Below, piece by piece: positions 5,001 to 59,924 of a stretch of 64,000 bases of DNA. The position numbers were made by a program, and so were the translations under genes. The notes under the pieces are model-generated. The model had not been told where the DNA came from, did no database searches, and saw only the letters and a program-made list of their open reading frames with translations. Numbering within the stretch: position 1 is the stretch's first letter; each line of letters begins with the position of its first letter. The DNA comes from Marsupella aquatica (lineage: Eukaryota > Plantae > Marchantiophyta), in contig OZ316894.1 of assembly GCA_973895155.1 (NCBI GenBank), forward strand, positions 14,808,599 to 14,872,598. The letters are read 5' to 3'.

Positions 5001-5049
5001 GAAGAAACTGAAAATTTTAAATTTTTTACGGTGTTTAGACTGCAATTGT

Positions 5050-27535: not shown

Positions 27536-27547
27536 GGTCCCAATCCA

Positions 27548-34628: not shown

Positions 34629-36558
34629 CTAGCAATTAAAGTGCAGATCAGTGTGGATACCTTTCCTTCGATTGAGACCATAGTTCACCAACTGTCGCCT
34701 CTGGGCCAATCGCCTACAGTTCTTCCCATATAGGTCCTCCACTTCCATGGCCATTGGGTGATGCTCCAGGGCTATATGAGTGCCCTCTTTGTAGCCTTGC
34801 TCATCATCTAAACCCCAGGTTTGTAACCAGTCATTACTGAAAATTGCCCCGCATGCCTTGCATTGTGGGCCGCTCGTACATGAATGAATATAAGTAAACA
34901 AACATGCAGGATGATATGTGTGCCCACATGATGCTGGGATCCAATTGTAGCAATGGTATCCATTGCAACAAATTGGACAACTTGATACAGATACTCTGCT
35001 AAAACTTGTTTCAGTGGACGTAAGGGTATAACGTGGCATCACTGCAGGACATGGGTTGCATAAAATGTCTGCCACAATCGCAAGCTCTACTTCCTAATGC
35101 TTCAAATTAGATTCAATCTTTCGGCGTTCTGCTGTTAACTTGTTAGATAAGTCAAACATCCGGGACATCATTTTAGGCACACTCTCGTCATACTCTTGTT
35201 TTCTCTGTAATCTTTCCTTCACACTATGCAAATCCCGTCGGGTGGCTTCCAACAGGCTAGAAAGCTGGATGACTGTACTCTCGTGAGTTCTTAGCGTTGT
35301 CCCCATCAAGGCCAACAAGTCGTTGTTAACCTGCAATATCAACATTTGAAACAATCACATGTCTTGCCACAAGGTCCATCGCCTAAAGCCCACATTGAAG
35401 TCCACAACCGCAAACAAACGGGTCCTGAACAGAGAAAGGACATGATCCTAGCAAGATGAAGGAGGAAATCTCAAAGTACCTCTTCAATCGCCTCTCCTTC
35501 ACCCTGCTTGTTGGATTCCAACTCAATGTCGGTCGTTAGTTCTTCCACTACAATTTCTTCTGCATCAATTTCATTGGAGATTTTATCTTCTTGAAGTCGT
35601 AGGTTCTCAATCTCTTGCTGTAATGAGCTCTCCACATCATCACGTCCCGACTGAATTACCTTCAGTTTGTCCATGGTAGAATGGACCTTGTCGAACCTCT
35701 TGTTCACAGACACGAGCTGACCCCTCATTTTAGATATCTCGACTTCTATGGCAGATACCAGAACGTTCTTCACTTTCAAGGGAATCTGTCTCTTCTCGGA
35801 TGGACGAACACATAGAATAGGTGTGGGAGGAGGTACTGTCCTAACCTTAGTCAAGCTGCAACTGCCAAGCTCCTTGGGCACGACACTTTTAGGGCTCTCA
35901 AAAAGTGCTAACTGTCCGTCACAGACGACGGGTTTAGTCTCTGACGAAGACTTTGGAGCTGAATACAGTTGAGGCTTTCTAACACAAGGAGGGCCATCAG
36001 GCCTACCTTTCCCATCTCGTGACCACTGAGTTACCTGACCCTTCAGTTTTGTCGATGCATAAGCTGCCCAGTTTACCTTTCTATGAAGCACCCGCTCGGC
36101 ATAGGCACCTTTGACAAACGTATGAGATAGAATTCCATTAACAGGCTTCTCATACCCGTCCACCACTTGAGACAGTGCTAAAATCTCATCAAGAGGAATA
36201 CCCGTGCAAGTACTTAGCTTATAGCCATTCCATTACCATTACCATTACCATTCCTTGTTACCTCACCAAAGCATGCACTCAACTGTTCCTCGGTGAGATC
36301 TAAAATCTTGTGCGGAGTTTCACCCTCATTGGGGAGACCAAAGTTTGTAGCAAACCAGGCTGCATCCTTGTAGAACTCGGTCGGAGACCAAGTTACATCA
36401 AAGCTCTGGCCTTTCACTTTCTTAGCTGCTCTTGGCAGTTGAGCTTTGGTGTTTTCCTTCGTGATGCCTGTCTCAGCTTTTGCCAGGACATTGGATACTC
36501 GCTGTATCGACTTGACATCCACCCCTCCATCAACTGTCAATGGAGAAGTGGTATCCAT
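34629..36558 (-). pseudogene. TE-associated gene: FGLP..G/VNWA domain, coiled coil and RING-H2 finger; probably continues at 30111-30590 beyond the solo LTR
   Basis: CPIC...CGHTYHPAC...CKAC RING-H2 pattern; GT-AG intron at about 35331-35479; frameshift near 36200; in-frame TAG at 35094. Confidence 0.65.
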
Positions 36559-37299: not shown

Positions 37300-38955
37300 G
37301 GAGTCCTCATAATGTCCTGGCCCCACCAATGTCATTATTAAGTCTTAAGTACGTTTTGTCTCAAAGTGAGTTCAAAACGTCCTTGGCGGCTCAAGATCCT
37401 TGTCATCTCAACCATTCATGTGCCAAGGATTGCGAGGACTGCCATCCCAGAATCCCAGTCCTTTTTGCACATTTTGGTACCCCTCAATCATGCTTTCCAC
37501 CAGCTTGAATCACTATCACCCGCTAATGTGTCCAGACCAGAGAGATCAACCACTCTTGTAACAGGATCTTCAGAAGTTGAGGGAATGAAGGCAAAGTCAA
37601 TTCTGTTGAGGTTTTTTCTTTTCAAGCCTTGAGTATTTGGTGTGGTTATGAGAACAGTGCCATGCCAATGGGAGTCTTATGGCGAGACAATCCCAGTTGC
37701 AGGTCCCTTCCTCTTCATTGACTTTGTCACTATATCTTCGTTAAGGGGATGAGTTCTTTCCAAATCAAAGTCCGCCGCATTGGAAAGAAGCATATTGGTC
37801 GCATCTTCAAATAACCTCGACAAACCTGCTTGATTGGCGGAATGGAACGCCAATTCCCATATAGTTGGCCCCTTTTCTCTGTTCAACCCTTTTTGGTATG
37901 CACTATATCCCGCAATTTGCGATAGAGCATGGTTTGATCAACTTTGCAAGCTTAAAAAAGACCAACCTTTTTCTTCATAGCCCATGCTTTCATAGAGGCA
38001 TGCCTTGATTCTAACACTGTACAGTTGGGAATCAAGGCACCTTCTTCTGCGCTTTTGCTCTACCATAGTACAAATTCAACAATAAGTGACATTCTATTAC
38101 CAGCGCCTGGCGCTATCAAGGACAATTATGTAATATAGACATCAAATACAATTTGAATCTCTGACTCTTGAAATTTGTTGACATATGGGCTTCAATGTAT
38201 TGCATTCATTGTTTCAACATGTGAATTACGTGAAAATAAAACCAGTGTCTGGCGCTAGTCTAAAGTTGATGTACAATGACAGACAAGAGAGGAGATATAT
38301 ATCATACCACTGGAATAAAATTCCCCCACTGGCGCCAACAAACAACCCACCAGGATATCCAGCTTTTTAGCATCATGAGCTTTCCTGGTACACAGTTTCC
38401 TGATTGCCACCACACCACAATCTATCGAGACACCTGATACACCACCACAAACATTGGAGCATTTCTTAGTTTCTCCCACAACCTCCGATGTTCCGATTGA
38501 CATTTTTCCAATACTCCTTCCTTGGAATGTCGATGAAAAGATTGATAAAAGTAAAATGCATCAGAGCGCTCTCGCTCCGGGGCTGGGTGTCCACCAAAAA
38601 AACATTGTGGACAACATTCCATCCCACTTGTGCATTGTCCACCATAAACCCTTGGATGACAACATCGTATAATCCATTTTCCTTGCAAACCTCTATCGTA
38701 ACTCTCCAAGCCTTTTCAAAAGACTTGGTGTCTTCACCTTTCAACTCACATGTGAAAATTGTACAAAGAGCACGGAAGTTATGGTCGTAGACGTGCGCAC
38801 TAAAAGTAAACCAATCGGTTGTCACAGGACGCATGACATCAAAACTCACCCAGGCTCCTTTGAGTCTTCCACCCGGTTGCATTTGCCGCAAAAGATCTAC
38901 ATCGGAACCATGACCCTTCATGGTCATTTTGGAGATGTGAGGCCTATCGTCTTGA
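37300..38955 (-). pseudogene. Mutator-like (MULE) transposase remnant, cut by the CACTA insertion at 38956
   Basis: WVSFDV...AHVYD...CELKGED...GFMVDNAQ..WN resembles a MULE DDE core; frameshifted. Confidence 0.55.
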
Positions 38956-41900
38956 CACTAGTAGAAACCGGGGTAATTTAGACCATACCTTATAGGACTA
39001 AGCCCACTAAGTCCTTCTTCCATACTTTAAATGACTCGCATCCATTGCCAAGGTTTTGTTAAAGACTATAAAAGACTTTGAGTGTTTTCATCTTTAGTTA
39101 AAGACTATGAAAAGTAACCTTGCTACTTTGTGAAGGGTGAACACTCTAGGACATCATGGGTTTTGTTCTTGGAATCACTCTAAAGGTCCACACAAAGACT
39201 AGTATAATACAAAGTCTTACAAGGGTTCATGATAAGAGTATACTTAAGAAGGACCGGCGACATGCTACTTTTTGGCCTAAGTGCTTAAGGACATGCCTTG
39301 TATATATCACCAACCTTAACTAACATTGCACCGTAAATATCCATGTAACGGGTACTTTTCATAACTTAGGGTACAACTGTACTGGAGGGCTTAGGGTGGT
39401 TTCTAACCGGAACCGGAACTAATGCATCACTATAACCCTAGCTAGGTACAACTCCCACACCATGATATATTCCGCATTGCCAACTAGTGTCATTTTAATA
39501 GGGTCATGGCCACTAATTGGCACAATGAACAGTCTAGCCCGTGATTGATTTTAGTCTAAATGATGGTGCCTTTTGATCCAAGATTAATTCCACAAGGGGG
39601 GGGAGGGTTAGGGTGGGGCACAACTAATTAAGTGGCCATGACTTTGTCACCAAAGGATTTTATTTAAAGTTATCCTTAACCCGTGTTAGTTTTGTGTCTT
39701 TTGTTGCCTAACACTCTAGCGCGGACGTACTTATTATGCTCAACGGGTCACCTCAACGGAAACGAGCTTACATGACTGCTTGCACTAAGTCTTGGGTTAG
39801 GGTGACTGTGCTTTGGTCATCATAGCAAATTAGGAATATTGCATTTTAGGACTGGATTTAATGTTGGGCAACCTTAATCCTGATTATGGCACAATAGAAT
39901 GCCACTATGTGCCGACCATGTATGTGCAAATATGACCATTCATTGCCTTCTTAGGGTAATTTGCCAGGCCATTTTTGCCTTGTTGGAGTCCACTAGTGTT
40001 TACAGAACATATGCTTCTGTGCTCAACGGCTCACCCCAACGGTTAGGGCTTTGTAAATTCCTTCCCCTAATTCTGTTTAAGGGTTTACGCTTAACTTTTG
40101 GGCCGGACTAAACTACATGGGCAAGGCGCGGGAGAATTCTTCGTGACTTAGTGGTCGAAACAAGGTGGTGGGGTCTTGGGTTGGGTGTTCGGGGTTTTGC
40201 CAAAGGGTTTTTCATTGACAATGAGCTTTCTCGATCAGTCCAAGCGTCATGCTGCTCTAAGTGTATACACTCTTGCCATCCCGAGCACCTCACGCGAGCT
40301 GTGAGCAGTTGCATCCTCCTGTTGTAAGTGCATTGATCTGCCAAGCGTTCAAATGCAAAGCTGCTAGCGTCTACTCCCTGTGCTGGTTGAATGTGTAGCG
40401 CTGTCTTGTGACGATTGAAGATTGCCCCTTACCTTTTACCGCCATCGCTGAATGCAGGATCGACCCGAATATAGCACCTGTGCAGAGGCATTGGGTGAAC
40501 ATAGTGAATGCCGTTTGTGTCTTGTGCAAGGTTGTGGGCCTAACGTTCGTGAGTCGTGAGCTGCAGACTACATGCGACTCCAAAGGAGGCATTGGGGAGG
40601 ACACGGTGAAGCAACAAGGAGCGGCGCGGGAGCTTAGAGTGGGCCAACGCTAGCTGAATCCAATCCAGGAGATGTTGCGCTAAGGTGAGACTCTGAGTTT
40701 AGGGTTGCTTCAGTGTCCAAGTAGGTTTTCTCTTTGCGTCGGCAGCTAGAAGGTAAGCTCGGGGGCTTTACAAAGGGTTAGTGTTGCGGACTTTCCCTCC
40801 TGGACGTTGCGTGTCTTCATTTGCAACTTGTTTGTGGACCTGTGATCCTGAGACTGTCAAAATTGTTGTGGCCGCACCGACAACTTGACGACGCATTTTG
40901 TGGATGCACCGTTAGTAATCGCGACTACAGCTCTCCAATGATTGCACTTACCATTTTTGACCACCTTGCATGATGTCCATCCGTGGGCTGGACCCCAGGG
41001 AGTAGATTTTGGTACATTTCAGTAGATTTTGTCTATGCCCCCGGTCCTCATTTTGTGCAATGTCCGCCTGGCACTTGGTTCTTGATCCCTACATTGTCGT
41101 CTGCCGCTCGGCTGCTTGCGGAAGGGATCAAACAGATTGGAGGTCACTGTGGACTGACATTCAGGCCTGGGTCAAGCAAGGAGGTTAGAGTTGAAGTCGC
41201 CTATGCTTGGCCTTCTCTATTTTCTCTGCTTGCCACTGCCTCTATTGTTGCTTACCATTTGCAGCTGGTGAAGCTGCATGCGGGTTGCATCTATTCTACG
41301 GGCGCGCTACGGGTGTTTTATGGATTGTGGACTTTATGTGGTGCGAGAATCGGTAACAACATGAACCGGACTTTTTTTACAGTCTTGGAATGTGCGTGAG
41401 CTGTGAAGGTTGCGCTTCAGAGCTGATATTCCTGTCGCCGCCTACTCCCATTGTTGTGTGTTCGTAACGTTGTGGATCGTAACGTTGGAACTCGGAGCTG
41501 AGCTGCGCACTGTCAACCATCAAGCGCTGTTGCGCGTTGTCAACCAAGAGGAGATGCCGCATCCCACATTGAGTTGAACATTCAGCTAGGGACCTGAGCT
41601 GCGCACTTTCAACCATCGAGCAACGACCAAGCTTGGCAGCGCTCTGGGATTTATCGGCCACATTGACAAAGCAGAAGACAGAGGTGAGTGTTCGTGCACC
41701 GTTAGAGTAACCGCGAGTACTCTATTACATGCCTTGTTGTTCTCTATTACATGCCTTGTTCTCCCGTCCACTGTTTCCTGCGATTTTCTTTCTTCCAGAA
41801 GATAATGGTGATTTCTTCTTCAATCAAACAAAACCCCACCCAACCACCACCCAAGAACGTGGGGTGTGCGCTACTTAATCCTCCTCAAACTGGCCCATTG

Positions 41901-43952
41901 TTCATTGAAACCCCATATATTACCGCCCGGCACCAAGGGACCAGTCCCAACCTGTCTTCCGCTTGCCACCCTCTTCACTCTCTCGCACATCTATCTCCCG
42001 ATATTTCATGCATAGCCGAGCCCACCGAAAGCTCTCTCCCTACAATCCCTCCCAAATCAACTTTCTCGTTTCCTGCTGCTGCTGATGTATGTTTGTTCTC
42101 CCCTATTTTTGTTTACTGAATTTGGTCTCTCCACACTTCTTGCTTGACATTACTGTTTTTCTCCTCCCTGGATCCAAACATGCCTTGTGCCCCGTGCTCC
42201 GACTTGCATCCTTTTCTTTACTAAGGGGGGGACCACAGCCTCCAGCCATACCTTGGATGCCGGGCCTGGTCAAGACGGTGGTCGGTAGCTCGTTTTTGTT
42301 TTTTTCTCTTTTGTTTCCCAAGCTTCTGGGCAAGGGCATTACCATTCTGGATTCTCCGCGAGGCGCCACTAGCTTTTTTTCTCGGTTGCCCGTGTGCCTG
42401 CCTTCTTAGTTTTGTTTTTTCCTCAAGTGACCAGGCCATCGCTGTATGCAGATTTTTCTTGTTGTATTCATATACAGTATTTTATTGTTCTATCTAGGCT
42501 GTGGCAAGCCAACAAACTGTTGACAACCAACATGGAATAACAACTATGCAGTGCAATGGCAGAGGACACTGTCCAATACAGGAATGACATGGTTATGTTT
42601 TCAATTCCCTGCTTGGATGAGGCGTGGTGTTGCTTGTAATCATGTATTTCTTCACACTAGAAAAGCAGTCTGTCAGATGAGGTTGTCGGGATTGTCTGTG
42701 GGTCAGTCATCTTACGGACACCTAGCAACGTCAAATGAATGGCGGAAACGGGCCATGTTGTCATTTTGAAATTTGTCTTTCCTTTTGCCATGCTACCCAA
42801 TCACTTTGTTAGTCCATGAGTCATAGATTCATAGATTCTATGTTTTGTGCTTTGTCTAGAATGCTATGGCGCCCATGCTACAATTTGTGGTTTTTGTCTA
42901 AGCACAAATCCTCTCTGTGCCTGGTCTCTGTGTCCCGTCATTTGGATTGATTGTGCAGACGTTTCCTCTTCTCCCAGTCCTTGTCATCCACCAGCCAAAG
43001 CACATTGGATTGTTTTCAAAGGAGGGTTGTGTAGTTTGGAGGGTTTGATCTATGCAGCAGAATTGAGCAGATTGGCGGTTGTTAGTTTCTTCTTGTAAAA
43101 CCTGTCTGTCTTTTCTGCTTTTGGCCATGCTCCTTCACTTCTTGCTGCAAGCTCAATGTGCTTCAGCTATGGCAATATTCACTTACCCTATCCCAACGGC
43201 ACTGCCATGAGCTGTAGGACAGCCAACAGAAGCAGATTGTATCGATTGCATGTAAGTCAGGGTATTTTATGTATTGCGGAACAACTGTCCAAGTATGCTG
43301 CAATGGTCGGTCTTGCGCAGCTGAATGAGCCAATTTCATTTTCCCTGTGCACTTCTATTTCTCAGAGAATTCCCTGGTCATGCTCATTTCCCCCAGAGTT
43401 AGAAAACAAAGAAGAAGAGCTGACTAATTGTAATTCCAATCCATATCCTGATCGGTCAAGGATTGTTCACTACATTGGCCTTGTCATTGGCCGAGGTCAC
43501 CAAATTTTGCTTGGTTTCATTCCTGTGGAGCACTGCTGTGATGGATTTGTCGTAGCATTCTGCAAACTCTCACGGTTTGCTTATGGCCATTATTTGCAAT
43601 TTGCTGCTACTAATATGTCTTCTTCTTAGCAGCATACACCAGAAGTAAGCAATAGTGGAGGTTTAACTGCACATCAACACATCTAGTGAACTACCTCTCT
43701 GCTGCTCACTGGAGGGTGAGACTTTCACTCTTTTTGGATATTGTAGTTTGTAAGCAAGTTGATTAGGAGTGTTTCATGCTATGTTTACACTGTGACCCCT
43801 AGCTGGAACCAATGGAATGACACAGTGAGTGGGAACTGATAATTTAAGGTTGGTTGCTGTTGGTGAGGCAAGTACAGCTCCTGCTCACCTTGCTGATCGA
43901 AGGTGCTTATCAGAGGACGTGAACACACGACATCTCCACAAAAGCAACACTT

Positions 43953-44402
43953 ATGGTGAGGACCCGCAACGCTGAACATGTGCGGCTTGCACGCAAGGCA
44001 GAGATGTTGCGCCTTGAGTATGTCAGACTTGGGATCCTTCCAGCCCAGTCTGCATGGTACTTTGAGTACCCAGTTGTTGCTAGGAACAACTACAGCCAGC
44101 CTGTACCTGCTTCTCCACCCTTCCCAACATCCTTGGTATTTCTGTCTCTTGTACATGACCCGCCACAAATTAGGGCCCAAGGGTGTGTGCACAGTTGCCA
44201 ATATGACTGTCTTGCCTGTAGGGCTTCTGGCCTAGAGTTGGATGACCGTTCTCTTGGATGTCAGTTTTTTCACAGAGCACAATGTATTATCTGGAACCAC
44301 TCGCCATCCTGTAGTGTGCCTGGTGATGTCACTTGTCCTGCCCTCCCAGACCCCACCACCGGTCACTTTGGTGTCTACACATGTTTGGATCACACGCTCT
44401 AG
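43953..44402 (+). CDS. Unknown Cys/His-rich 149-aa protein, cargo copy A
   Basis: Intact ATG-stop ORF; clear homolog at 56708-57160 (GC.HSCQYDC.ACR, CI.WNH, CPALP). Confidence 0.75.
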   Translation: MVRTRNAEHVRLARKAEMLRLEYVRLGILPAQSAWYFEYPVVARNNYSQPVPASPPFPTSLVFLSLVHDPPQIRAQGCVHSCQYDCLACRASGLELDDRSLGCQFFHRAQCIIWNHSPSCSVPGDVTCPALPDPTTGHFGVYTCLDHTL

Positions 44403-45071
44403 AGGACCACTTGTCACACCGCATGCACAAACCAAAGACCATTGACCTATAACTTAACACTTTGACTTGAACAGAGAGGATATTTACTTAAGATTTTGAA
44501 TTATGACCAATTTTGGGTCCAGGGTTTAGGGTCAACAGTACATAACTTATCCTATTATGGCTGCACTAAGTACAATATCCTAATTTAAGAGGCTAGCAAG
44601 CTCACTTAAAAGTCTCCTTTCAAAGATTGGAATTAATGGGCCATGTGATAACCTGGAAAAAGTGATTTATGCCTAACTTATTTGTCTCATTCACTATCAT
44701 AGCCTATTTAGGATGTATAAATTACAACCCTGATCACACTGCTTGATACCAATCCTGTTCAAAAAATGCCTGTTTTACATGTCACGACTGTTATATGTGA
44801 TTCAAATGCATTAAATCTTGTTGCAGATCTCCTTTGGTGAATCATAGCCACAAAATTGAGGTGTAGGTAAAGCTATTGTACGAGGGGATCAGTTTTTAGT
44901 GTGGGCTCAACAAACCAAAAAGTATGTCTACTCTGCACATGTGTGTGAACATTTCATTGCAGTAGCAATTGCCACTCTAGTCTATATGCTACACTGTACT
45001 TTTTGTACACTGCACTAAATTGTATTGTCTGTGCACTCTGCTAAATTGTACTATCTGTCTCATGCGTAGGC

Positions 45072-45752
45072 ATGGCACGCCCTAAAATCCGAGCCAAGAA
45101 GCGAGGGACAGAGGTGAGCAACACAGGTGTAGTTGGGCCAGATGGTAGTAACTTCTCCGCAAGTCAGATTTTCCAGAAGGCAGCTCATTGTTGTGCCATT
45201 TGTGACGATGGTGGTGGCTTAGCCATATGTGAGGGCCCTTGCATGAGACATTTCCACCTCAACCCGGAGTCTGACCTTGCTGCAGAAAACAACTGTCCAG
45301 AGGTGGGCCTCCCGTCAGCACACTAGGGAGGCTGGATGTGCACTGATTGTTTGGAGAAGCAGGCTAAGTGTGCACAGTGTGGGAAGTTGGGGTCTTATGA
45401 GGGCTCTATTGATGCTCCACCACTTGTTAGGAAATGCCCTGACAGATATTGTGTGAGGTTCTTTTGTTTTTCATGTTTGCCCGATCTTGCCACAGCTTGC
45501 CCACTTCATAAGTGCAAGGCATGTGGTCAGCAGGATGAAGATTTTTGGGTGGACATAGTCCACTGTGTTAGGTGTCCCACCATGTGGCACTTTCATTGTT
45601 TGAAGGAGCGTCAAGCAGAAGGCTATGCTTGTGACAGACACATCTATGATCACTCTGCACATGGTGTTGATCGATGGATCTTCTATTGTCATCGCCATGC
45701 CATAGATCCTACTTTGCACACTCCCATGAGAGATCACATTTCTTGGCTTTGA
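45072..45752 (+). pseudogene. Stand-alone EDM2/NSD-type PHD finger cassette, copy A (one in-frame TAG at 45324)
   Basis: CAICDDGG.L..CEG.C.R.FH, CPLHKC..C, CVRCP..WH..CL and FYC..H.ID..L.TP.RDHI match the EDM2 PHD region as I recall it. Confidence 0.85.
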
Positions 45753-46350
45753 ACCTGAATAATGTACATGCATAGTGCACCTGATGTGGATACCTTGGAG
45801 ATTGCAGACATTCCAATTTTGAGAAGAAGGACCTCTGTAGGAGAGGATGCTTAGGCAACAAGTACCCTAAGTTCATTACTTGTTCCTGGGTACATGCCTT
45901 CAAAAACTCCCCTTAAGCCTTCTAGGAACTTTTTTAACTCTGCAATCATTTTGATCACGACTTACATGACACTGCTTAAATTAAATCAGGACTTCTCATT
46001 ATGAGCATATAAGTTACAAGGCTATTTAATTTGCGAGAATTCCCTTAAAGTGTACCAACATTTTGTATTCTCATTGAATGTCTGCCCATTTACAACATCT
46101 GTATGTGGCATCACAAAACAATTGCACTTGTCACCTTCAATATTGTGAAGGCACATATTCAAACTATGAGGTGCATGCTTGCAGGTGTCTAGTACGTTTG
46201 TCCCAATATTTCTCCCGTTTGGAATCGGAGCAGAGACTCACCAGACGATTGGACTGGACCAAGTTATAAACGCAGCATTTTAAGGGCCCTCCGATTATCA
46301 GGTGAACGCATTATCTTCCGGTCTACAGTGATTAGGTGGCCCGTGTGTAC

Positions 46351-47202
46351 ATGGCCTCTAGGAAACGTACAAAGGTTGACCACCCACCTCTGTTGGCTGG
46401 AATCAAAGCCATTTTGATTCCTGGCCACTATGGGTTCACCCAAGTGAGTTGGCCAATCGTACAAAAACGATTCTCAGAGTTCCATGGGACTGAAGTCAAG
46501 GACATCACTCCACAAACTACACATGTTGTTGCGGGGACATGGCTGGATGTGATGAACAAGTGGTCATGGTCCTTCATTGATTCTGCCATTACCAACCAAG
46601 GTCTAAAAGTAGTTGAAGTCTCTTGGCTGACCGATTCTGTTAAACATAGGTGTGTACAGAGTACTGAGCAATATGAGTTGTGGGAGAGTGTCAAGGAGGC
46701 CACTGCAGAGGCTTTGGCTGAAAAGGAAGCCTATGAAGCAGCGGAAGAGAAACCCAACTTTGCTTCTGTCCAATATGGACCTGTTGTCAACATAGGACAC
46801 CATCCTATGCGTGCAGATGCTATATTGAATGAGCATGGCAAGGAGAGAAATACCATTATGAAGGGGTTCAGTGTGGTATTTGCAGAAGAAGGAATTGGGG
46901 AGACTAAGTGCAGACTGTACAAGTCTATAGTTGTTGAGCTAGGTGGAACAGTGGAGGAGAGTCTAATAGAAACCTCCACTCATGTTGTAGGTCTGTCATA
47001 CATGAAAATATGCAGAAAATTCTTTAAGACAATAGTGTGTGATTTTGTCATGAACAACAATCTTTGGGTGCTTTCCCCTGATTGGCTTCTGGAATTAGCA
47101 GCTAGAGGGAAGCGACAGAATGCTTGGGACTTTGATATTTTTGAGGCCTGGCCCTCCAAGATTCAGCGGAGATGTATGCTTAGCAAAGGTGGGAGAGAGT
47201 GA
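46351..47202 (+). CDS. Tandem BRCT-domain protein, 283 aa
   Basis: Two BRCT repeats: G.EV...TTHVV...VVEVSWLTDS and LGGTV...STHVV...VLSPDWLLE; intact ORF. Confidence 0.8.
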   Translation: MASRKRTKVDHPPLLAGIKAILIPGHYGFTQVSWPIVQKRFSEFHGTEVKDITPQTTHVVAGTWLDVMNKWSWSFIDSAITNQGLKVVEVSWLTDSVKHRCVQSTEQYELWESVKEATAEALAEKEAYEAAEEKPNFASVQYGPVVNIGHHPMRADAILNEHGKERNTIMKGFSVVFAEEGIGETKCRLYKSIVVELGGTVEESLIETSTHVVGLSYMKICRKFFKTIVCDFVMNNNLWVLSPDWLLELAARGKRQNAWDFDIFEAWPSKIQRRCMLSKGGRE

Positions 47203-47378
47203 GGAGTAGGAGTCCCTCATATTTTTGTATAAATCACAATTTTGTAATAAATATGATCCTTGAACTAACTCATCTTGTCATGGTTGGTCGCAGTTGAAGT
47301 GATTGTTGTTTCCTGCTGCGTGGGGTGTGACTGTGAATCTACTTGCTGGGCTCTGTTTGGCTGAAGACTTTGGTGGGT

Positions 47379-47912
47379 ATGCTGCCTCTTCCAGACCGTC
47401 AGGCCCTATGTAGGGTCCTCCTACGGGTTGCATCGTGCATGGCTACTGCTTGGGCTTACTTGTGTGGATTGGTAACCAGACAGAGTGTAGCTCCATCCGA
47501 GATAATGCCTGCAGACCTTGGATGTGTTGTGAATGCTGTGGTGAATGAGGATGCATAGTCAGAAGAGGACATTTACTTTTCAGCAGATGAGTTAGACAAG
47601 CACGATGCTGTAGGTGGTTCCTTGTTGCCTGATTTGGCAGATGATATAGTTCTTACACATGTCTGGCCGAGGGTTCTTGTGGTGTCTGGCGCACAAGATA
47701 TCTGCAAATATAGACTAATTAGTACCCAGTGGAGGGACTTGGTAGCAACATGTGCACCATGGAGGGCACTGCTGCCACTGCTTGTAGGCACGGATCGAAG
47801 ACCACCATGGCATGAGCAGGGTTTAGACCTTGATGACTTAATGTACATGCCTGAGTACCTCAGGGCTGAGTGGCATCGACAACAGGATTGGTATCCGTAT
47901 TTGATGTGGTAG
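47379..47912 (+). pseudogene. F-box-like protein
   Basis: LPDLADDIVL.HVW.R...RLISTQWRDLV F-box pattern; in-frame TAG at 47556. Confidence 0.55.
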
Positions 47913-48238
47913 TAAGATGAGGACATCTCACACCGGTCTCGCACTTGGCACCTGTGTCTATGACTATACATGATTGGACTCTGATATGGTCATGGATGTA
48001 CGTGCAGAGGCAGTACATGTGAGGACAGCGGAGGAGTTGACACCCTCAAACATTTAGGAATTTTGTCTCATTCACTTGAGAATAGGTACATGACTCAGGC
48101 ACCTATATTTTTTGTTTTTTTGTTTTTTTGGAACGTTACGTATTTTGGCAAGTACAGTCGGGGGTGAAATCCTTAACAGGAAGTGTATTTTTCACTTGCA
48201 TAATAAAATGACAGGGTGCTGAGTGCGTGTGTATAGTG

Positions 48239-49301
48239 ATGGCTCCAAGGTTGCCTCTTCACAACCCATTTAGGATTAGGCATCATGATTCTAAATTGTG
48301 GATGCGTGAACAAGCCCGGACCGCCCAAGGTAGGAGTAGGAGGATGAGATGCCCATGCACACAGTGCCAAGGATTCAAGTCGTTGAGTTTGAACACTGTG
48401 CACCTTCACCTGCTGCGGCATGAAAGGCACCCTCGGTGGAGGGTTTGGAATGTACCAGCAGAAGAAGACTCCTCTGATGAAGAGTGGAGAGCTGACTTTG
48501 TGGATTCTAATACAGCTAGGCGTAGAGACTACACGGTCTCAAATTGCACACTTCAACAACAAAACAGAGCTTCGTGGCCCACCACAGAGGGTCACCAGAG
48601 AGCAAGTCCTGAGGTGGGCAGCCAGGAAGGCTGATTGGGACAAGAGAAGTGCCACTGATGGAGAACCTGAGGATCCAGTGGTGAAACACGGTGTGAAAAG
48701 ACAGACCTTGATGGACTTGGAGTTGGAGTACTGGAGGGTAATGTACTTAGCCTCCAGCCCCTGTATGATTGCAATTTTAGATTGGAAGCAATGGTGGATT
48801 GATGTTGGTTACAATCCTCCTATGTGGTTAATTAGTGTTTCTGTTGTTGAATTCTTTGCTTTGTGGAGTGCAGGAATTCGAGCCCAGCAAACACAATGTA
48901 GACGTCATGCACATTGAGAAAAATATTTGTGAGAGCTTGCTGAAGTTCTTGTCGGGTGAGAAAGATACAGGAGCAGTTTGAGCTGATATGCAACAGAAGG
49001 GGATTCGCCCTCACCTTTGGTTGAAGCCCCATGCAAGCAATCCCAATGTACTTCTCAAGTTCCAAGCTCCCTATGTGTGCACACAGGATGAATGGAAGAC
49101 ATTCTTGTATAGATTGAGTTGTCTGAAAGTGCCCTCTGGCTATGCTGGTGCCTTCAAGAAGCATATTACAAAGAATAAACTTGGCAGTATGAAAACACAT
49201 GACTACCATGTGTTGATGCAGCACATTCTGCCCCTATGCCTCAGAGGTCTCATGCAGAAACCAGTCCGTAATGTCATTCTTTGACTGTGCAATGTATTTC
49301 G
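48239..49301 (+). pseudogene. CACTA (Tnp2/TnpD-like) transposase, internally deleted and truncated
   Basis: RCPC..C...HL..H transposase-associated domain, DVMHIEKNICESLL, LKVPSGYA, MKTHDYHVLMQHILP (DUF4218-like). Confidence 0.9.
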
Positions 49302-50332
49302 CCCACAAGAAGAAAACCTATGTTTTACTACTACAGGCCTTGCAACTACTTTGCCTAAACAACTCATACGTGGTGCCAACCACTGTTTTTTTAATGGGTT
49401 GTAATAATCTGCATTTTGTGACTCTAATTAGAACTATGTTACCTTAATCACTAATTACAACTCTTTTTTTTGCCACTAAAACTTAGATCACTTTAATTAG
49501 AGTTGTATATTATACAATTTTCAAATCACTACAATCCACCGTCCATTACACCGTCAATGTTTACAACTCTATTTTTAACTAAGATTTTACTACTGGCCAA
49601 AAGCACTACAAATACAAGTACCACCAATATTTGAATGGTAAAGGTGTTTTTTCAATCAACTCCCAATCAAGTGAATCTTTTCCAAGTGATCTTAATTACT
49701 TGAAATAATGTCATTTGTGAGCACACCTTTTGTTACTATAAATATCACCAATAGTGGAGTCATAAATGAATTTTGGCAAAATCACTTAAAATATTTTAGT
49801 GACAAGGAAATTCTTACAAACAACATAAGATTGAGTGAATTAATTGTCAATGTACAAAATCTCTTTAAGTAAAGTCATTATTATCACAAATTTTCTGACT
49901 AGAAATGCCACTAATATTAGAGTCCAATAAATATTATTTGATGCAACTACAAACCAAGTGCCACATCCTCTTTTGGTCCAAAATCACTCTAAAGAATGTT
50001 ATTCTCTTCGCACATTTTAGTGACTCCAAATGCCACTAAGAGTAGAGTGTCAATGGAGGGCCTTGCAAATGACTTGAAATGAAGTAGATCATTTTTCATT
50101 CTCAGAAATCACTATGAATAATGTCATTCTTTAAATATATTTTGCAACTACAAATGCCATCAACATTAGAGTGTCAGAACAGTTTTGACAAATGACTGAA
50201 AATTGAAAGGATTATTTTGTGATGTCCAAATCTCTCCCAATGATGTCATTAGCAACACACATTTTCAGCCACGATATGCATGCCACCAAAATTACAGCGA
50301 TAAATAAATTCTTTTTTACAAATTGTACCAAA

Positions 50333-53127
50333 ACCACTGCAGAACATGTAGTTTGAGGGTTTTGGGCACTTGTCACTTGAAATACCACCATGTTTTGAGT
50401 TGGGAAAGTTATGTGTTTGAACTTCCAATCAAGTGCATTGGTAAATACCAGCGCAACCACTTAACATAAGGTCCTTTCGGGCTCTCATCTTCTTGCAACT
50501 ACAAACTGCATCCATATTTGAGTGATACAACACACATTGGTGCGATCATTTGCCATGAACTAGTGCTAAAAGGAGTGAATTGTGTGGATGCATCAAATAA
50601 GCCTCATATTTGTAATTCTGTAGAGTCTTGGAGTGATTTGTGTGGAGTTCATGATGTTGCATCACTTGGGTGCCTCAAATATCTCCACCTTGGCAATTTA
50701 TGCATCACAATCTCATTGTCGTTGCTATAACTAGTTGGCACACGTGATGGGGCTGTCCCATGGGTTCACCATGGGGGAGCTAACACGGAGGAATTGTGGT
50801 GGCGGCGGGCCCAGCCCTCCTCCTTTAATCGTGACCCTGCGAGAATTGCGGCAAGGTGGATCCACTTCTCATTATCCATTGTAAGTCTGTCACTCCGGAA
50901 ACCACTCGAAACAATGTGCTTTAAAGCTCTCATTTCTAGCGACTAACATTGTCACTCAAGCTGGGGTGGTACATCACGCATCCTTCTAAACAACTTCTCA
51001 TGAAGTGGTAGTCCTAGGATGATTGGGGGGCAAACCACTACAAATGAGGTGGTTTTAGGGTTTAGGGCAAATGCAACTTAAAATACCACCTTTATTTGAG
51101 TTGAGAAATAAATTGGGTGCAAACACTTGCAATGAAGTGTATTTATATGTACACGCCCAATTGATTTGAAAAAAGGTCCTTTCAGGCCCTCGCCTTTTGG
51201 CGACTACAAATTGCACCCATATTTGAGTGATGCAGCACACTTTAGTGTGATCCCAAACCATGAACTAGTGCTAAGAGGAGTGAATTGTGTGGATGCATCA
51301 AATAAGCCCCATATTTGTAATTCCGTAGAGTCTTGGAGTGATTTGTGTGGAGTTCATGCTGTTGCATCACTTGGGTGCCTCAAATCTCTCCACCTTGGCA
51401 ATTTATGCGTCACAATCTCATTGTCGTTGTTATAACTAGTTGGCACACGTGATGGGGGTGTCCCATGGGTTCATCATGGGGGGGCTAACACAGAGGAATT
51501 TGTATGGCGGCGGCCCAACCCTCCTCCTTTAATTGTGGCCCTCCGAGAATGCCCGCAAGGTGGATCCACTTCTCATTATCCATTGTAAGTTTGTCACTCC
51601 CCAAATCACTAAAAACTATGTTCTTCAAAGCCCTCATTTCTAGCAACTAATACTATCACTCAAGCTGGGGTGGTACATCACGCATTCCTCCAAATAACTT
51701 CTCTTGAAGTGGTAGTCCAAGGGTGATTGTTGTTCCCCACTACAAATGAGGTGGTTTTAGGGTTTAGGGCAAATGCAACTTAAGATACCACCTTTATTTG
51801 AGTTGAGAAGTAAATTGGGTGCGAACACTTGCAATGAAGTGTATTTATATGTACACGCCCAATTGACTCGGAAAAATGTCCTTTGAGGCCCTCGCCTTTT
51901 GGCGACTACAAATTGCACCCATATTTGAGTGATGCAGCACACTTTAGTGTGATCCCAAACCATGAACTAGTGCTAAAAGGAGTGAATTGTGTGTCGCATC
52001 ACATAAGCCCCATATTTGTAATTCCGTAGAGTCTTGGAGTGATTTGTGTGGAGTTCATGCTGTTGCATCACTTGGGTGCCTCAAATCTCTCCACCTTGGC
52101 AATTTATGCGTCACAATCTCATTGTCGTTGTTATAACTAGTTGGCACACGTGATGGGGGTGTCCCATGGGTTCACCATGGGGGGGCTAACACAGAGGAAT
52201 TGTTATGGCGGCGGCCCAACCCTCCTCCTTTAATCGTGGCCCTCCGAGAATTGCCGCAAGGTGGATCCACTTCTCATTATCCATTGTAAGTTTGTCACTC
52301 CCCAAATCACTAAAAACTATGTTCTTCAAAGCCCTCATTTCTAGCAACTAATACTATCACTCAAGCTGGGGTGGTACATCACGCATTCCTCCAAATAACT
52401 TCTCTTGAAGCGGTAGTCCAAGGGTGATTGTTGTTCCCCACTACAAATGAGGTGGTTTTAGGGTTTAGGGCAAATGCAACTTAAGATACCACCTTTATTT
52501 GAGTTGAGAAGTAAATTGGGTGCGAACACTTGCAATGAAGTGTATTTATATGTACACGCCCAATTGACTCGGAAAAATGTCCTTTGAGGCCCTCGCCTTT
52601 TGGCGACTACAAATTGCACCCGTATTTGAGTGATGCAGCACACTTTAGTGTGATCCCAAACCATGAACTAGTGCTAAAAGGAGTGAATTGTGTGTCGCAT
52701 CACATAAGCCCCATATTTGTAATTCCGTAGAGTCTTGGAGTGATTTGTGTGGAGTTCATGATGTTCCATCACTTGTGTGCCTCAAATCTCTCCACCTTGG
52801 CATTTTGTCACAAACCTCATTGTCGTTGCTATAACTAGTTGGCACACGTGATGGGGGTGTCCCACGGCTTCACCATGGGGGGGCTAACATAGAGGAATTG
52901 TTATGGCGGCGGGCCCAACCCTCCTCCTTTAATTGTGGCCCTCCGAGAATTGTTGCAAGGTGAATCACTTCCCCGTCCACTTCTTATTATCCTTTGTAAG
53001 TTTGTCACTCCCGAAACCACTCAAAACAATGTGCTTCGAAGCCCTCATTTTTAGCGACTAACATTGTCACTCAGGCTGGGGTGGTACATCATGCATCCTT
53101 CTAAACAACTTCTCATGAAGTGGTGGT
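50333..53127. repeat. About 701-bp tandem repeat, 4 units
   Basis: Homologous landmarks at 51055, 51757, 52458; units carry TTTAGGG-like, CACGTG and CCATGG-palindrome motifs. Confidence 0.95.
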
Positions 53128-56100
53128 CGCTACTACCATCACCTAGTCAGTAGTGATAAATGACATAAATGTTGTAATTTACAAACAACTTACAATCAAG
53201 TAAGGGATGGAGAGCTTGTAAATCCCACTACAAGTGATGTAGTATCGGACTCTCACCAAAGTGCAGCAACTATGTCACCAACATTTGAGTGATACATTGC
53301 TTAAACCACTTGCCACCAGGTAGTGGGTTCGGAGGGGACTGGCAAAAGCACTTGGAATGTGGTGATTTTCCGAAGTGCGAGCCATTACATTGCCAAAGAA
53401 GTTTAGTGAATGGTGCCAAGGGTAATTAAAACATAGAGAAAATTAAAACAACATCCTGGCCGGAACATGGTTTAGGGTACATAGAAGCTTGGGGTTTCTA
53501 GACACTCAGCGTATCTCTCAATGCAAGGGAGTGTCATAGAAAATGTATTATTTTGTAGCACCACTAGCATATATTACTTCTAAAGCTTTGTATGATTTAC
53601 ACAATTTCAAGGAGTAAGGTATTAAAATTGGCAATAGACAAAAAGTGATTCACATAGGGTACTCTAGAAATGAAAATGTGGGTTTAATTAGGATAAATGG
53701 TTGGCATTAGGACCCGCATTAGGACTCACATGGATAATGTCATTTCTCACTTTAAAAAGCATTGCGAGAAATTAAATGTTTACTACCCAAGTAATTATAC
53801 CACCTAGGTAACATTGTTGGTGGCATATTGGAAGTTCTTCATTTTTTGCACCACTTTGAAAGAGCCAGGTAGTCACCACTTAGCACTTATTTGTAGGGGT
53901 TAGACAAGTGGCAACGTTGGGGTGAAACTACATTAAAAAAAACCTGGGGGGTGAGTGGGTTGGCTTTATAACATAAGGGATGGATGGGATGGCCTGGGGG
54001 CTTGGGGTGTAAATTCAGATGGCTAAGATCACCCTCATCCGATGGCTGAGATCACCCTAGGCGCTTCCATGTCAGAGTAAGTCTAGAGTACGGGTTCGCG
54101 CCAAACGGCTATTTGCACCCGCCTTACGTTGGATGAAGAGTTGCAGCGTTCCACTTTTCCGACAAAGTATCGAGGTGAAACGCTGAATGTTGTGGTTACT
54201 CTCTAGCACAAAGGGTTTAGGAGAAGAGAGCAAAGGGGTTTAGCAAGGACCTTGCACTGCTTTTTTTGCCTCCAGAGCTGTGGAGTTTAGGGCTGCGATC
54301 GCACCTCATGGATTGAGTTTGTGGAGTGCGAAGCTGCGGGAGTGAATGTGGGCACGGTGCACTGGAGTTAGTGCTGCAATCAAGGCTCGTGGCTTTTTTC
54401 TAAAGTGGAGTGCAGAGCTGCGCGGGGGAGCTACGGGAGTGCGAAGCTACGGGAGCACAGAGTTGTGGGAGTGCGCGAGTGCGGAGTGTGGGAGTGGCAA
54501 GAGCTGCAGAGCTACAGAGCCACAAACTGTGTTTGAGTGCAGAGCGATTGAGTGCGGAGCTGTGATTCAGCTGTAGCCTGTCGGAGTTCAAACAGAGTGC
54601 ATTTCCCCACTGGAAACGTCGAGGCTAATCGGGCATTGTCAGGTTTTGGTGCCAGAGTTGTGAAGGAGCAGGGTTTTCGGTACGTTGGACATTGGCGCCG
54701 CGTGGTGGGCACTGACTCTCCAAACTCCTTGTCAGCGGTATTGCGGAGCTGGGCAATCTGCAAGAAGGGAGACAGGCAAGCTGCAATAGTGGACGTCGAC
54801 CTACAATGCAGGTTGGAGTTTCTAATTAGTCACCATTGCTGGGATTTGAGCTCTCATTTGCTTTGGGCTATTTGTCAGAGTCGTAAATGGCTGAGCATCA
54901 TTCCACCAAGCTGATTTCCGTTGAGCTCATTTGTGGATAGTGGACCTATTGGTTCACATTGGAGTTGCAAAGGAGCTGGCCAGAGCAGCTCGGGCCGTCA
55001 CAGCTTGTCGGCAGCATAGGTCACAGCTCGGGGGAGGGTTGCCGGTCGGACCTTGGCGCTGCGTGGTGGACACTGGACCTGCCAAACTCCTTGTTGGCAG
55101 TTGTCAGCTTTCATCTGGCTCAACATACTCGCCACTCATTTGTTTGTCAGCTTCTTTCACTTCCCGGCCATGCCCTTGATTTCTTTCAGCTTTCCCAAAC
55201 AGAGCTTACTTGCTCTCTGCTCTCTGCTACAAGTCCGGGTCTGAAATCAGCTGTTTGTCTTGTTTGTTTTGTGCGAGGGCTTCCCAAATGTATTGTTGAG
55301 GCTGTATTGCAGATTAGACCATTACATTCTCGATCCAATAGACCCCTTTGAAGCAATCAATCTGAAGCAATCAATCTAAAACCTTCACAGTTTCTCTAGG
55401 AATTCTTGTCGTCTGCTCATCCTATGTGCTCATTCTCTCTCTTCCTCTCTCTGTTTTGTGCATTGCCTTGTTTGGCAGGGCGCCTATTGTGCTCTGCCTC
55501 GGATGTACCTGTACTGTCGTGGATGTGCTTGCAATATAGCAATAAATAACCTGCCCATGCTGATGATGCGCCTCCACAGACCCTTCCCTCCTTTTGTCTC
55601 TTGGAACACTATCGAATCATTGCTGGTCTGTAAGGCTTACTTCAGCATACTGGTCACATATTGCTTGCTGTTTGCTATAGATGAGTACATAATGGAAGAA
55701 TGAAATACTCTTTAGTCTTGTCATTTAATAGTCTTGTCCTCTCCACGTCCCGGGTTAACTGTTTAAATAGAGACTAATGGTTCACAGTTGAAATAGAGAC
55801 AAACTTGTTTTGTTGTAGAGAAGAAGCTCTTTACTTGCTATACTAGTAGCAGAGTTCTGTCTGTCTTGATCAATGCTACCTACTATCTGGCTTGCTGTCC
55901 GATTCAATACTCTGGTTGCGCTGACATACGTGTATCCGACTTTGTGGTAGCTCAAAGCCAGTGACGTTCACACTCTTGACCTTTGTCTGTTTTTGCTGGG
56001 GCAAGATTGCCGTAAAGTTGTTATTACTGGCTGAAAGGTTTACGTCTCCAAATTTACATTGAGGTTCTACATGTAACAAGTAGGCTACTGCCCCCCTTGG

Positions 56101-56707
56101 TCTTTTGTGGACAATGCTATTTTATTGGCGCTATCCTTGTCATTTGTGCTTTTTCTTGAGGGTTCTCTCATTGCCGCCAATTGGAACACCTCAAGACTTT
56201 TCTTACCAGCGAGGGCGTGAATCATGCACCATGCCAAGCCCCTGAAGTGAGATCTCACTTCATTGTCTCGTATTTCCGTGGATGTTTGTAAATTTTCATT
56301 TTTACTTTCTTGACGATCCTGTCATTTTGGTCAGGAGTGGTCACTCTGTTTCAAGGTCTGTTTTGAGTTTCTTCATCTTGTCTCGTGCTGTTGCTTCTCT
56401 TTCTATGAATCTTGGATCAATGCTACCTGCTCTCTAGGTCGGCCTCCTATTCTGTACTCTGGTATGGTTAATGGAGTCTTGTTTGTGTGCGCGGTAAATA
56501 GAATTACCAATTGTTGGCATTGGGAAAGTCTTGAGCCTGTCTAAGCTTGTCCTTTAAAACGTGAAGGGATTCATCCCTGTATATAAACTGAAATTCAGGG
56601 TCAGTCATGAAATCTCCAGTTTTTTAACCATGGTCTTATAGTTTCAGGAGCGAGTGGACCTGCTGTGGACGTGAGCAAAGCAGCACAGGACGTGATCAAG
56701 AATAGCT

Positions 56708-57160
56708 ATGGTGAGGACTCGCAGCGCTCATTCTCAGAGTCTTGCAGGCACCGCAGAGAGATTGCGTCTAGAGTTTGTCAGACGTGGCACATGGCCAGCC
56801 CACTCTACATGGTATTTTCGTTATCCAGTTGTAGTGCAGAATGACTACAGCCGGCCTCCACCTGTGGCATTACCCTTTCCCACATCCGTGGTGTATGTGT
56901 CACTTATTGGCAAAGTGCCACACGTCAAGGCCATCCTAGCGCATGGATGTATCCATTCTTGCCAGTATGACTGCGTTGCTTGTAGGGTGGTGAACCCAAC
57001 AACCCTGGTCGGTGCTGACAAAGCCGCTAAACAAAGTAGGAGGATATGCATCCTTTGGAACCACTTTGCATTGTTGAATGGTGTGGATAGTGATCTCGGG
57101 TGTCCTGCCCTGCCAAACCCCGCTATTGGGGGTTTCTCGGACACATCATGTTTGATTTGA
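56708..57160 (+). CDS. Unknown Cys/His-rich 150-aa protein, cargo copy B
   Basis: Intact ORF homologous to 43953-44402. Confidence 0.75.
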   Translation: MVRTRSAHSQSLAGTAERLRLEFVRRGTWPAHSTWYFRYPVVVQNDYSRPPPVALPFPTSVVYVSLIGKVPHVKAILAHGCIHSCQYDCVACRVVNPTTLVGADKAAKQSRRICILWNHFALLNGVDSDLGCPALPNPAIGGFSDTSCLI

Positions 57161-57918
57161 AGTTAGTTTACACCTGCAGGAATTCTAACACAGTACGCAC
57201 GTACCAAGATGCAATGAGATAAGGCATATTTTTGGATGAAATAGTAACTTAAACACTGAGAAATAACTTATGCTTTGACTTTTTCTATATATTCGTACAA
57301 TTTTGTATTGAGGGTTTGAACACCTCAGTGGAATTAAAGTTTTGAAGTACATTGCAAAACCCCTATCCACTAAGCACAACATTTTAATCTAAGATGTCAC
57401 CAGTCCACTCAACATCTCTGTTCAATGACTCTGTTCCAGAAGGCCCACAATCTATTGCTAAATGAAAGTTGAATCCAATAGTTAAAGTCTCTGTCAATGA
57501 CTCCCACTCCCCCCTGGCAGATATGCCTTATGGCTCTAGATCGGGTACAGTGAATGAAGAAAGTTGAAGAGTGTCCATGTAATGTTTGTCCATGCATAGT
57601 CCTTGCCAACTCAAACCAGTGCTCTGTGTAGTGGCTCCATTTAAATGATATTTTGTGTCACATTTGTGCTGTTGCAGATTATGAATCCTTGTTTTTACAT
57701 CTTGTGACGTGAGAGGGGATTGAGATCTACATCTGAAACCGATCAAGGCAATCTCCAAATTTCATTGCCTTCCTCTTGGTTGAGTACAATTGGTGAGTCC
57801 TCTACATTCTGGCCCCACATTGGATTGCAATATGCAAGTGGTAAGTACGTGTTTTATGACAGCCAATTTAACAGTTTAATAACTCTTCAAGTTTTCTTGT
57901 TCATGTCCAGTGGTCATA

Positions 57919-58571
57919 ATGGCTAGGACCAAGCATAAAGCCAGAAAGAATGATACTCGAACGAAAAAGGAGGAAGATGTGTTGATGATTGAATTGTGGT
58001 CAGACGTTGAGAAACGTCAGTGTAGTCCCCAGCTTTGTGGCATTTGTGACTGGCATGGAGATCTGGCCATGTGTGATGGGGCTTGCCATCGGCACTTCCA
58101 CCATGTTTCCAAAGTTGGTGAGGTTGTTGGCAGGTGCCCTGCTGTATTTATTGCACCAGGCAAGGATGATGATCCTTGGTATTGTCCAGAGTGTAAGGAT
58201 AAGACATACAGGTGTTTTCAGTGTGGCATTGTCTCTACTACTGCCAGGCAGTGCCCCCATCCATATTGTGTTCGTTTTTATTGTCATGGATGCTTGCCAC
58301 TTGATGTGGAGTCTTGCCCCATCCATACATGTGTTGCATGCCAGCAGGACCATGGTGACCCTCATCTGCCAGAGGCCGTGAGTGTTTGAGATATCCCAAA
58401 ACTTGGCATCGTACTTGCCTAGCCGAGAGTAAGCATCAAGGTTTTGCATCGGACAGAGTGCCCTGGCATCATACTGCACATGACCAGGGACGTTGGATGA
58501 TTTACTGTCCTGACCATCCTATTGACCCTGCTCTAGGCACAGCGGCTCATGATCACATCTCCTGGCTTTGA
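57919..58571 (+). pseudogene. EDM2-type PHD cassette copy B with an H3-tail-like N-terminus; frameshift near 58385
   Basis: MARTKHKARK start; CGICD..GDL..CDG.C.RHFH, CPIHTC..C, IYC.DH.ID..L.T...DHISWL. Confidence 0.8.
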
Positions 58572-59141
58572 TTCACCTGGTCCATTTTGGTTCAAATACA
58601 TCATTACTATTGTAGACATCGATACAGTTAGTTAATCAATGGAACAATGATGTTTTGTCATAATCACACATTTTGTGAACTGTGTGAATGGTTAGCACAA
58701 GCATGGAGACAGTGCTCCCGGTTTAATTGACTAAGGCTTCCTAAAACATCTAAAGTACTCAAACTTTATTTATTTGACATCTAAAGGACATTGTTTGATA
58801 TGCACTTTAGCATGCACGATCTGTTACGTCTCCAGTTCCGCAATTCTGAGCTTGGGGCGAAATTTCACTTCGAGTTGGAAGGGAAATTGGCTGCGGTTTA
58901 AGCTCAGACTTTGCCAGAGCATTGGAAACAGCGAGAATGTATCACTGGCAAAGTTAGAGCTGCAATCGACATCGTTTGGTATGCACTTTAGCATGCACGA
59001 TCTGCTACGTGTCCAGTTTTGGGATTCTGAGCTTGGGGCGAAATTTCACTTCGAGTTGGAAGGGCAATCGGCTGCGGTTTGAGCTCAGATTTTGGCAGAG
59101 TGTTGCAAACAGCGAGAGTGTATCACTGGCAAAGCTTTGTG

Positions 59142-59912: not shown

Positions 59913-59924
59913 TGGATTGGGACC

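Follow-up and report, generated by a model that had tools for sequence, protein, structure and literature searches.

A family of stand-alone EDM2-type PHD proteins with an H3-like N-terminus, found beside a CACTA transposase remnant in the liverwort Marsupella aquatica

What is the PHD region of EDM2 doing, detached from the rest of the protein, in the repeat DNA of a liverwort? Arabidopsis EDM2 is described as having, besides 2.5 atypical PHD repeats, acidic domains and one that resembles a methyltransferase (PMC7529245), and as acting at the heterochromatin of transposable elements (TEs) in both directions (PMC7529245, PMC3632883, PMC9292364, PMC10852260). In the window analysed here, a 64,000-nucleotide stretch of the Marsupella aquatica genome, one reading frame encodes an EDM2-type PHD cassette and nothing else. 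We were interested in the origin of this cassette and in its potential role next to a transposon, and report a comparative analysis of its relatives, its N-terminal tail and its genomic neighbourhood.

Two cassettes and their lesions

The cassette occurs twice in the window. The features of the two copies are:

45072..45752 (+): PHD cassette copy 1, stand-alone, EDM2-type, 226 codons (reading frame and homology)
45324..45326 (+): premature stop of copy 1; a Gln codon in other contigs (4/4 runs), private to copy 1
44827-44866 (+): putative 5' UTR exon of copy 1 (splice consensus only)
44867-45069 (+): putative intron of copy 1 (splice consensus only), with the acceptor 2 nt before the ATG
57919..58571 (+): PHD cassette copy 2, from another subfamily than copy 1; lacks one base near 58380, a lesion private to copy 2

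The frame of copy 1 is interrupted once, by the TAG at codon 85 (45324-45326), and ends in TPMRDHISWL-stop. Copy 2, the sole other copy detected by tblastn against the window, is split over two frames; its first 158-167 residues are 35-36% identical to copy 1, and identity rises to 50% in the last 62. The C-terminus of copy 2, HISWL, is identical to that of copy 1, so that the common end point noticed in the earlier note holds. That note had also assigned one lesion to each copy, which is correct for copy 1 but not for copy 2, where Tyr replaces one Cys of a CxxC pair in addition to the frame break near 58380; copy 2 therefore carries two defects. Self-blastn detected no DNA similarity between the two copies, which are thus old relatives rather than products of a recent duplication.

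Contigs from public runs were mapped on the window (13 listed, 11 covering part of it, none recorded as RNA). At position 45324, the sense letter is dominant in 4/4 runs (2740 of a depth of 2850 in X1, 141180/142764 in X2, 63496/64150 in X3 and 93/93 in X5), which are not all independent, since the best-covering run may stem from the window's own source. At position 58380, one extra base is present in all of the covering depth (131.5/131.5 in X1, 9500/9500 in X2; X5 gives no cover there). The stop of copy 1 and the frameshift of copy 2 are, then, private lesions of the window copies, and the frame is open in most high-depth copies.

The PHD cassette is intronless. Splice-acceptor-like sites precede both ATGs, at 2 and 8 nt, and because these share the same phase, a fusion to an upstream coding exon was considered. 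If copy 1 is spliced as the consensus predicts, the frame is closed three codons upstream of the ATG, and none of the four candidate donors supplies an upstream in-frame Met, which, as far as splice consensus goes, favours a free N-terminus. Among the joints listed in the public-run contigs there are no GT..AG joints, a result without bearing on expression.

Relationship to EDM2

A profile built from 13 intact relatives and run against proteins of 533-2000 aa (2279 candidates) produced eight matches, of which three are EDM2-like (E 2e-25 to 9e-24) and the other five, far weaker, are NSD2 proteins (2e-9 to 8e-6). Copy 1 aligns with the Phragmites EDM2-like protein P0021 (residues 231-435) at 30% identity over 210 columns (E 1e-24), and this alignment terminates on the TPVRDHIKF of P0021. 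In an alignment of eight family, eight host and one NSD rows, the family keeps Cys/His at 25/26 host-conserved Cys/His columns. The profile search, the P0021 alignment and the Cys/His columns together bear out the EDM2-type origin that had been proposed from the residue pattern, the top long matches being EDM2-like proteins and not unrelated PHDs. Pfam NSD-type PHD models match three parts of the copy 1 protein, mostly slightly under their cut-offs.

The family also departs from EDM2 in several respects. One PHD2 His ligand is Cys in the family (17-row alignment), an insert of ~20 residues in PHD2 that is present in all eight aligned host rows is absent, and the acidic stretch that precedes PHD1 of EDM2 is missing, only ~40 basic residues standing ahead of PHD1 in the family. 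Given the lost acidic stretch and the His-to-Cys change, the mark specificity of the family may differ from that of EDM2. Two features by which AIRE-type fingers bind H3, a GxL.xC[DE]G strand and a Trp motif, are retained in PHD1. The closest solved relatives by sequence are PHD1-3 of NSD2/3 (E 3e-11); EDM2 itself did not turn up in sequence searches of the PDB. An AlphaFold model of the family member P0002 (pLDDT 67, with a poor PHD1) was uninformative: Foldseek returned nothing at E<=0.001, its top rows being PZP and NSD PHD domains, and the best match in a VIA structure comparison, the Ehd3 tandem PHD, reached Z 4.1.

Searches for relatives yielded 4/90 candidates, 18/7579, and the best 150 of 753 representatives. 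The resulting family set comprises 29 rows including both window copies, with partial rows placed by score and by eye rather than by tree. Most of the full-length members have 213-245 aa, and pairwise identity is 33-79% (median 43%, 17 aligned family rows). An intact, multi-copy, old family of ~220-aa stand-alone PHD proteins exists. The stand-alone form that the earlier note had read from the two local copies is shared by copy 1 and all full-length relatives, which stop at HISW[LI] or near variants, and the intact copies on which that note had made its case depend are present elsewhere, as full-length open members among the 29 rows. Metagenome contigs (eight loci) contain no family member and so provide no second genomic context: seven loci are EDM2-like genes or transcripts of hosts, and the eighth, L007, matches PHD more weakly. 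Of 104 pattern matches in viral contigs, none was confirmed.

Phylogenetic trees were built on the PHD region, with FastTree for 161 of 175 rows (14 short ones dropped), with IQ-TREE for 51 chosen rows, and for 27 chosen rows. In all trees, the family is a single clade on a long stem (support 95, 100/98 and 100/100 with 161, 51 and 27 rows, respectively). The two larger trees do not resolve the host sister of the family; with 27 rows it joins liverwort paralogues from Calypogeia, Riccia and Marchantia (93/88). These paralogues are the best single-cassette host matches (138-125 bits, among the best 150 of 753 representatives), and their PHD lies at or near the C-terminus. In AU tests, for which the groups were named after earlier trees had been viewed, a grouping of the family with seed-plant EDM2 was rejected (p 0.022), and groupings with canonical liverwort EDM2 (p 0.114) or with the moss protein P0065 (p 0.33) were not. 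By its PHD sequences, then, the family forms an old clade of its own, not nested among seed-plant EDM2 orthologues and itself no EDM2 orthologue, and a liverwort-like host may have been the donor of the cassette.

These trees bear directly on one of the roles that the earlier note had suggested, that of a dominant negative. In this reading, the protein would block the ASI1-AIPP1-EDM2 complex, or enter it as a mimic of EDM2, with full-length transposon transcripts as the outcome. EDM2 is described as binding H3K9me2 chromatin, promoting full-length transcripts and affecting >2,000 TE loci (PMC7529245), and as raising COPIA4 and lowering Mu1 transcripts (PMC3632883), and the cassette is clearly EDM2-type. 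We nevertheless regard this role as improbable because the family is not sister to seed-plant EDM2 and lacks the RFD-like part, the methyltransferase-like part and the PHD2 insert. Among hosts, it is closest to the EDM2 paralogues of liverworts and not to the EDM2 of seed plants, which leaves the specific link to the ASI1-AIPP1-EDM2 complex unsupported.

The PHD-only EDM2-like form is not unique to the present family: host proteins of this form, belonging to other clades, include Marchantia P0058 (280 aa, Mp4g03050), Leersia P0019 and Eleusine P0059. Two more host-annotated PHD-only EDM2-like proteins, P0064 and P0103, complete a set drawn from Marchantia and grasses.

The CACTA neighbourhood

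The surroundings of the two cassettes contain the following features:

43953..44402 (+): orfX copy 1, an ORF of 149 aa with Cys/His residues that fits no known family; upstream of PHD copy 1
46351..47202 (+): BRCT-domain gene, open, tandem-BRCT (PF00533, E 9e-13; contig depth)
47559..47912 (+): F-box-like ORF, recognized by eye; no Pfam match
48212..49303 (+): CACTA (En/Spm) transposase remnant (PF13963, E 2e-5; Atlas look-alikes 0.92-0.98)
56708..57160 (+): orfX copy 2, 49% identical to copy 1, upstream of PHD copy 2

The transposase remnant lies 2.5 kb downstream of PHD copy 1. Its Atlas look-alike clusters contain DUF4218 in 15-45% and Transposase_21 in 16% of their members. Other contigs carry the transposase on past 48532 and 49303, and the window version is therefore internally deleted at the former position and truncated at the latter. 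orfX is open in both copies, starts with M-V-R-T-R, and has no match in Pfam or the Atlas (model pLDDT 36). With orfX, the BRCT gene and the CACTA transposase remnant alongside, the element context presumed in the earlier note is supported for copy 1. Near copy 2 there is no BRCT or transposase match in the window, and a LINE lies downstream. The BRCT gene, being in a repeat unit with a CACTA transposase, is a possible repair-related cargo.

Contig depth in X1 is similar across the unit (1978, 1768, 1772, 1817 and 1912 over the PHD, BRCT, F-box-like and transposase parts), compared with 52-92 for pieces at 53156-57349; binned depth is 2000-7500 over 43284-49259 and ~100 at 53244-57227. In X5, the PHD depth is ~2x that of the other genes of the unit. 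The PHD cassette is thus likely to have been amplified together with the CACTA transposase, a likelihood and not a demonstration, given that depth is not copy number and that none of the listed contigs bridges the two. Scans of the locus for the CACTA/G terminal inverted repeats (TIRs) and 3-bp target-site duplications (TSDs) of a CACTA element returned only chance-level pairs, in a copy that breaks off at 49303.

This neighbourhood could also have arisen passively, if a host family of small PHD readers had been picked up by Pack-CACTA-style capture and were useless to the element. Consistent with such an origin, PHD-only host relatives exist, the element ends were not found in the TIR/TSD scans, and no transposase adjoins copy 2 in the window. 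We consider it unlikely, however, for several reasons. Six family representatives were looked up, and none bears a gene name from an annotated genome (five are nameless, and one is a 'hypothetical protein'). Two subfamilies that are 36-50% identical both stand behind orfX, and most high-depth copies are open in frame, unlike decaying captured fragments. Finally, the cassette lacks introns, and the CpG observed/expected ratio of 0.27-0.31 in both copies agrees with methylated repeat DNA.

The window as a whole is repeat-rich DNA of plant type, with LINE, Gypsy and CACTA remnants. Right behind the truncated element, at 50331-53128, a 701-bp unit is repeated in tandem about four times, the repeats being 83-98% alike. 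A young LINE encoding an endonuclease and a reverse transcriptase is present at 58735-63864 (+) and 26450-28853 (-), with 99% identity between copies, 181-bp tandem repeats at the 5' end and an internal 607-bp duplication. Long transposase-looking ORFs with no Pfam match (16408-19442, +) adjoin arrays of 7/21-bp subterminal type (19664-20060 and 29291-29687). Other pieces are an LTR retrotransposon remnant with RNase H and integrase, together with a weak RFC1 C-terminal match (8684-9686, -, and 4011-4601, -), a RING-like ORF fragment with a weak Pfam match (34629-35093, -; E 0.04), and a fragment that by eye resembles a piece of a Mutator transposase (38466-38957, -).

The N-terminal tail and its possible function

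Both window copies begin with a motif that resembles histone H3's N-terminal tail:

45075..45101 (+): H3-tail-like nine-residue motif of copy 1; 5/9 identical to H3 1-9, with K4, A7 and K9 in register
57922..57948 (+): H3-tail-like motif of copy 2; 7/9 identical to H3 1-9

Among 509 methionines of the window that are followed by 40 open codons, only two, those of the PHD copies, fit M-Z-R-x-K, the start by which Chen et al. define H3 N-terminal mimics and which they report for 48 of 20,996 human proteins (PMC8166343). Such tails are described there as being methylated at K4 and bound by K4 readers in vitro, and H3 residues 1-18 as printed in that paper served as our reference.

Tail counts were made on the 27 family rows that retain the N-terminal part (P0055 and P0085 were left out). 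The strict motif M-Z-R-x-K is found in 13/27, in 11 of them at the called first residue; the looser [AST]RxK is found in 22/27, and the motif is absent from 5/27. Among the 22 rows with [AST]RxK, in which R2 and K4 served as anchors, Ala7 is present in 16 against 2.5 expected from composition, and Lys9 in 13 against 4.5. With the rows anchored by Met only (25 rows), mean identity to H3 1-9 is 2.48, compared with 1.04 after shuffling (0/10,000 shuffles as high), although these expectations overstate the significance as the family rows are related. P0008 equals copy 2 in its 7/9 match. From residue 10 onward, column identity falls to ~0.1, so that conservation spans exactly nine residues. A conserved H3-like N-terminus, which the earlier note had passed over, is a family-wide feature.

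The resemblance is incomplete. Thr3, Thr6 and Arg8 of H3 are mostly replaced by Pro3, Lys6 and Lys8: in the 22 rows, position 3 is Pro in nine and Thr in four, position 6 is never Thr but Lys in 14, and Arg is found at position 8 in only two. The context of plant start codons favours Met-Ala starts. Among control proteins, 15/143 begin with M-Z-R and 3/143 fit the strict motif, all three being grass PHD-only EDM2-like proteins. The three grass proteins start with M-A-R-x-K, and their Marchantia counterpart P0058 has a similar basic motif. These H3-like starts in PHD-only hosts hint that the pairing of a reader with an H3-like tail may have evolved repeatedly. Residues 1-26 of copy 2, used as a query against the PDB, gave no matches, and a complex prediction for the tail of P0008 (residues 2-31) with its own PHD cassette (score 0.02) gives no answer.

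The tail can also be read without mimicry. A cargo chromatin reader might guide insertion or transposase assembly, in analogy to retrotransposon chromodomains and to the PHD fingers fused to some transposases, with the basic N-terminus acting in nuclear import or in contact with DNA or nucleosomes. The tail is indeed rich in Lys, with a Lys6 (14/22) that is unlike H3; the BRCT gene in the PHD unit points to repair or integration functions; and orfX starts with M-V-R-x-R as well, so that starts of this kind may be a general trait of these elements. Against this stand the rarity of a classical NLS pattern (2/22 tails), the conservation of the non-basic Ala7, the end of conservation at residue 9, and the fact that the tail stays at the very N-terminus although the linker varies in length. 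On balance, we find a role in targeting or assembly conceivable but doubtful.

We favour, with a probability of roughly 0.5, the reading that copy 1 is a locally broken member of an intact family that is probably CACTA cargo and an accessory chromatin factor with an H3-like tail. How such a factor might work is a more tentative matter. It is possible, though on present sequence comparisons we would not wager on it, that a lineage of plant DNA transposons encodes a histone mimic, in which an EDM2-type reader, acquired by capture, binds silenced chromatin and offers a tail resembling H3(1-9), K4 and K9 being in register, so as to hijack or decoy host writers and readers of H3K4 and H3K9. In the reading that we favour, a liverwort-type EDM2 paralogue would have been captured once, long ago, and then trimmed to the reader; the PHD cassette would dock on the H3 tails of silenced chromatin; and removal of Met would expose a tail that host proteins might read, write or bind like H3K4/K9. 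A tail treated in this manner would recruit activating factors or soak up silencing readers and writers at the element. The net effect would be an element kept transcribable, similar to the action of VANC or transposon TET proteins, yet via histone marks.

If such a hijack or decoy were real, the protein would be the first transposon-encoded anti-silencing protein that combines a reader with a mimic. Host chromatin is acted on by few known transposon proteins (VANC and fungal TET/JBP), and histone mimicry has so far been seen in viruses and host proteins. In searches of mainly open-access literature, we came across neither an EDM2-type PHD gene carried by CACTA elements nor a transposon-encoded H3 mimic, and no H3 mimic joined to a PHD reader of its own; an earlier annotation in subscription papers, supplements or repeat databases is possible. 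EDM2 goes unmentioned in the accessible text of the preprint 10.1101/2024.09.22.614159. A reader of 220 residues that is conserved, present in high copy and fitted with an H3-like tail would offer a small and directly testable case of how a transposon in a non-seed plant may counter silencing by way of histone marks, and the cassette is a natural minimal EDM2-type PHD module for work on structure and specificity.

Among known systems, Arabidopsis EDM2/ELP1 has in common with the family the atypical 2.5 PHD repeat up to the T-P-x-R-D-H end and nearly all of the conserved Cys/His columns (25/26). In contrast, the family stops at HISW[LI] without the N6-adenine methyltransferase-like ELP domain and has neither the RFD-like N-terminus (PF12047 in hosts) nor the acidic tracts and the Pro-rich tail; its PHD2 insert is deleted, and it forms a separate long-stem clade that is multi-copy, repeat-borne and equipped with an H3-like N-terminus. 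The liverwort EDM2 paralogues (Calypogeia P0032/P0057, Riccia P0033, Marchantia P0037 and P0058) have the PHD near the C-terminus, and P0058 is PHD-only with a similar basic motif near its start, but they are mostly host genes of 600-770 aa that keep the PHD2 insert and have no free N-terminal H3-like motif. The best solved relatives by sequence, PHD1-3 of NSD1-3 (E 3e-11), match far more weakly than the EDM2-like proteins and belong to large SET methyltransferases.

A parallel in possible function is VANC of the Mutator-like VANDAL elements, an accessory chromatin protein encoded by transposons and probably derived by capture of a host regulator (PMC10398659, PMC13547354), although VANC binds the DNA sequence of the element, whereas the PHD family has a histone-reader fold and stands beside a CACTA transposase; the main text of PMC13547354 does not mention PHD, BRCT or histone. 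The PHD family may likewise have an anti-silencing activity. Fungal TET/JBP proteins are a further case of a host epigenetic factor captured by DNA transposons, including EnSpm, and proposed to counter silencing (PMC12730594); these are fungal enzymes acting on DNA methylation, whereas the PHD family consists of non-catalytic readers of a plant. The tail, finally, resembles the H3 N-terminal mimics known from human host proteins and from viruses, such as influenza NS1 (PMC8166343), in its M-Z-R-x-K start, to which the PHD family adds matches at positions 7 and 9.
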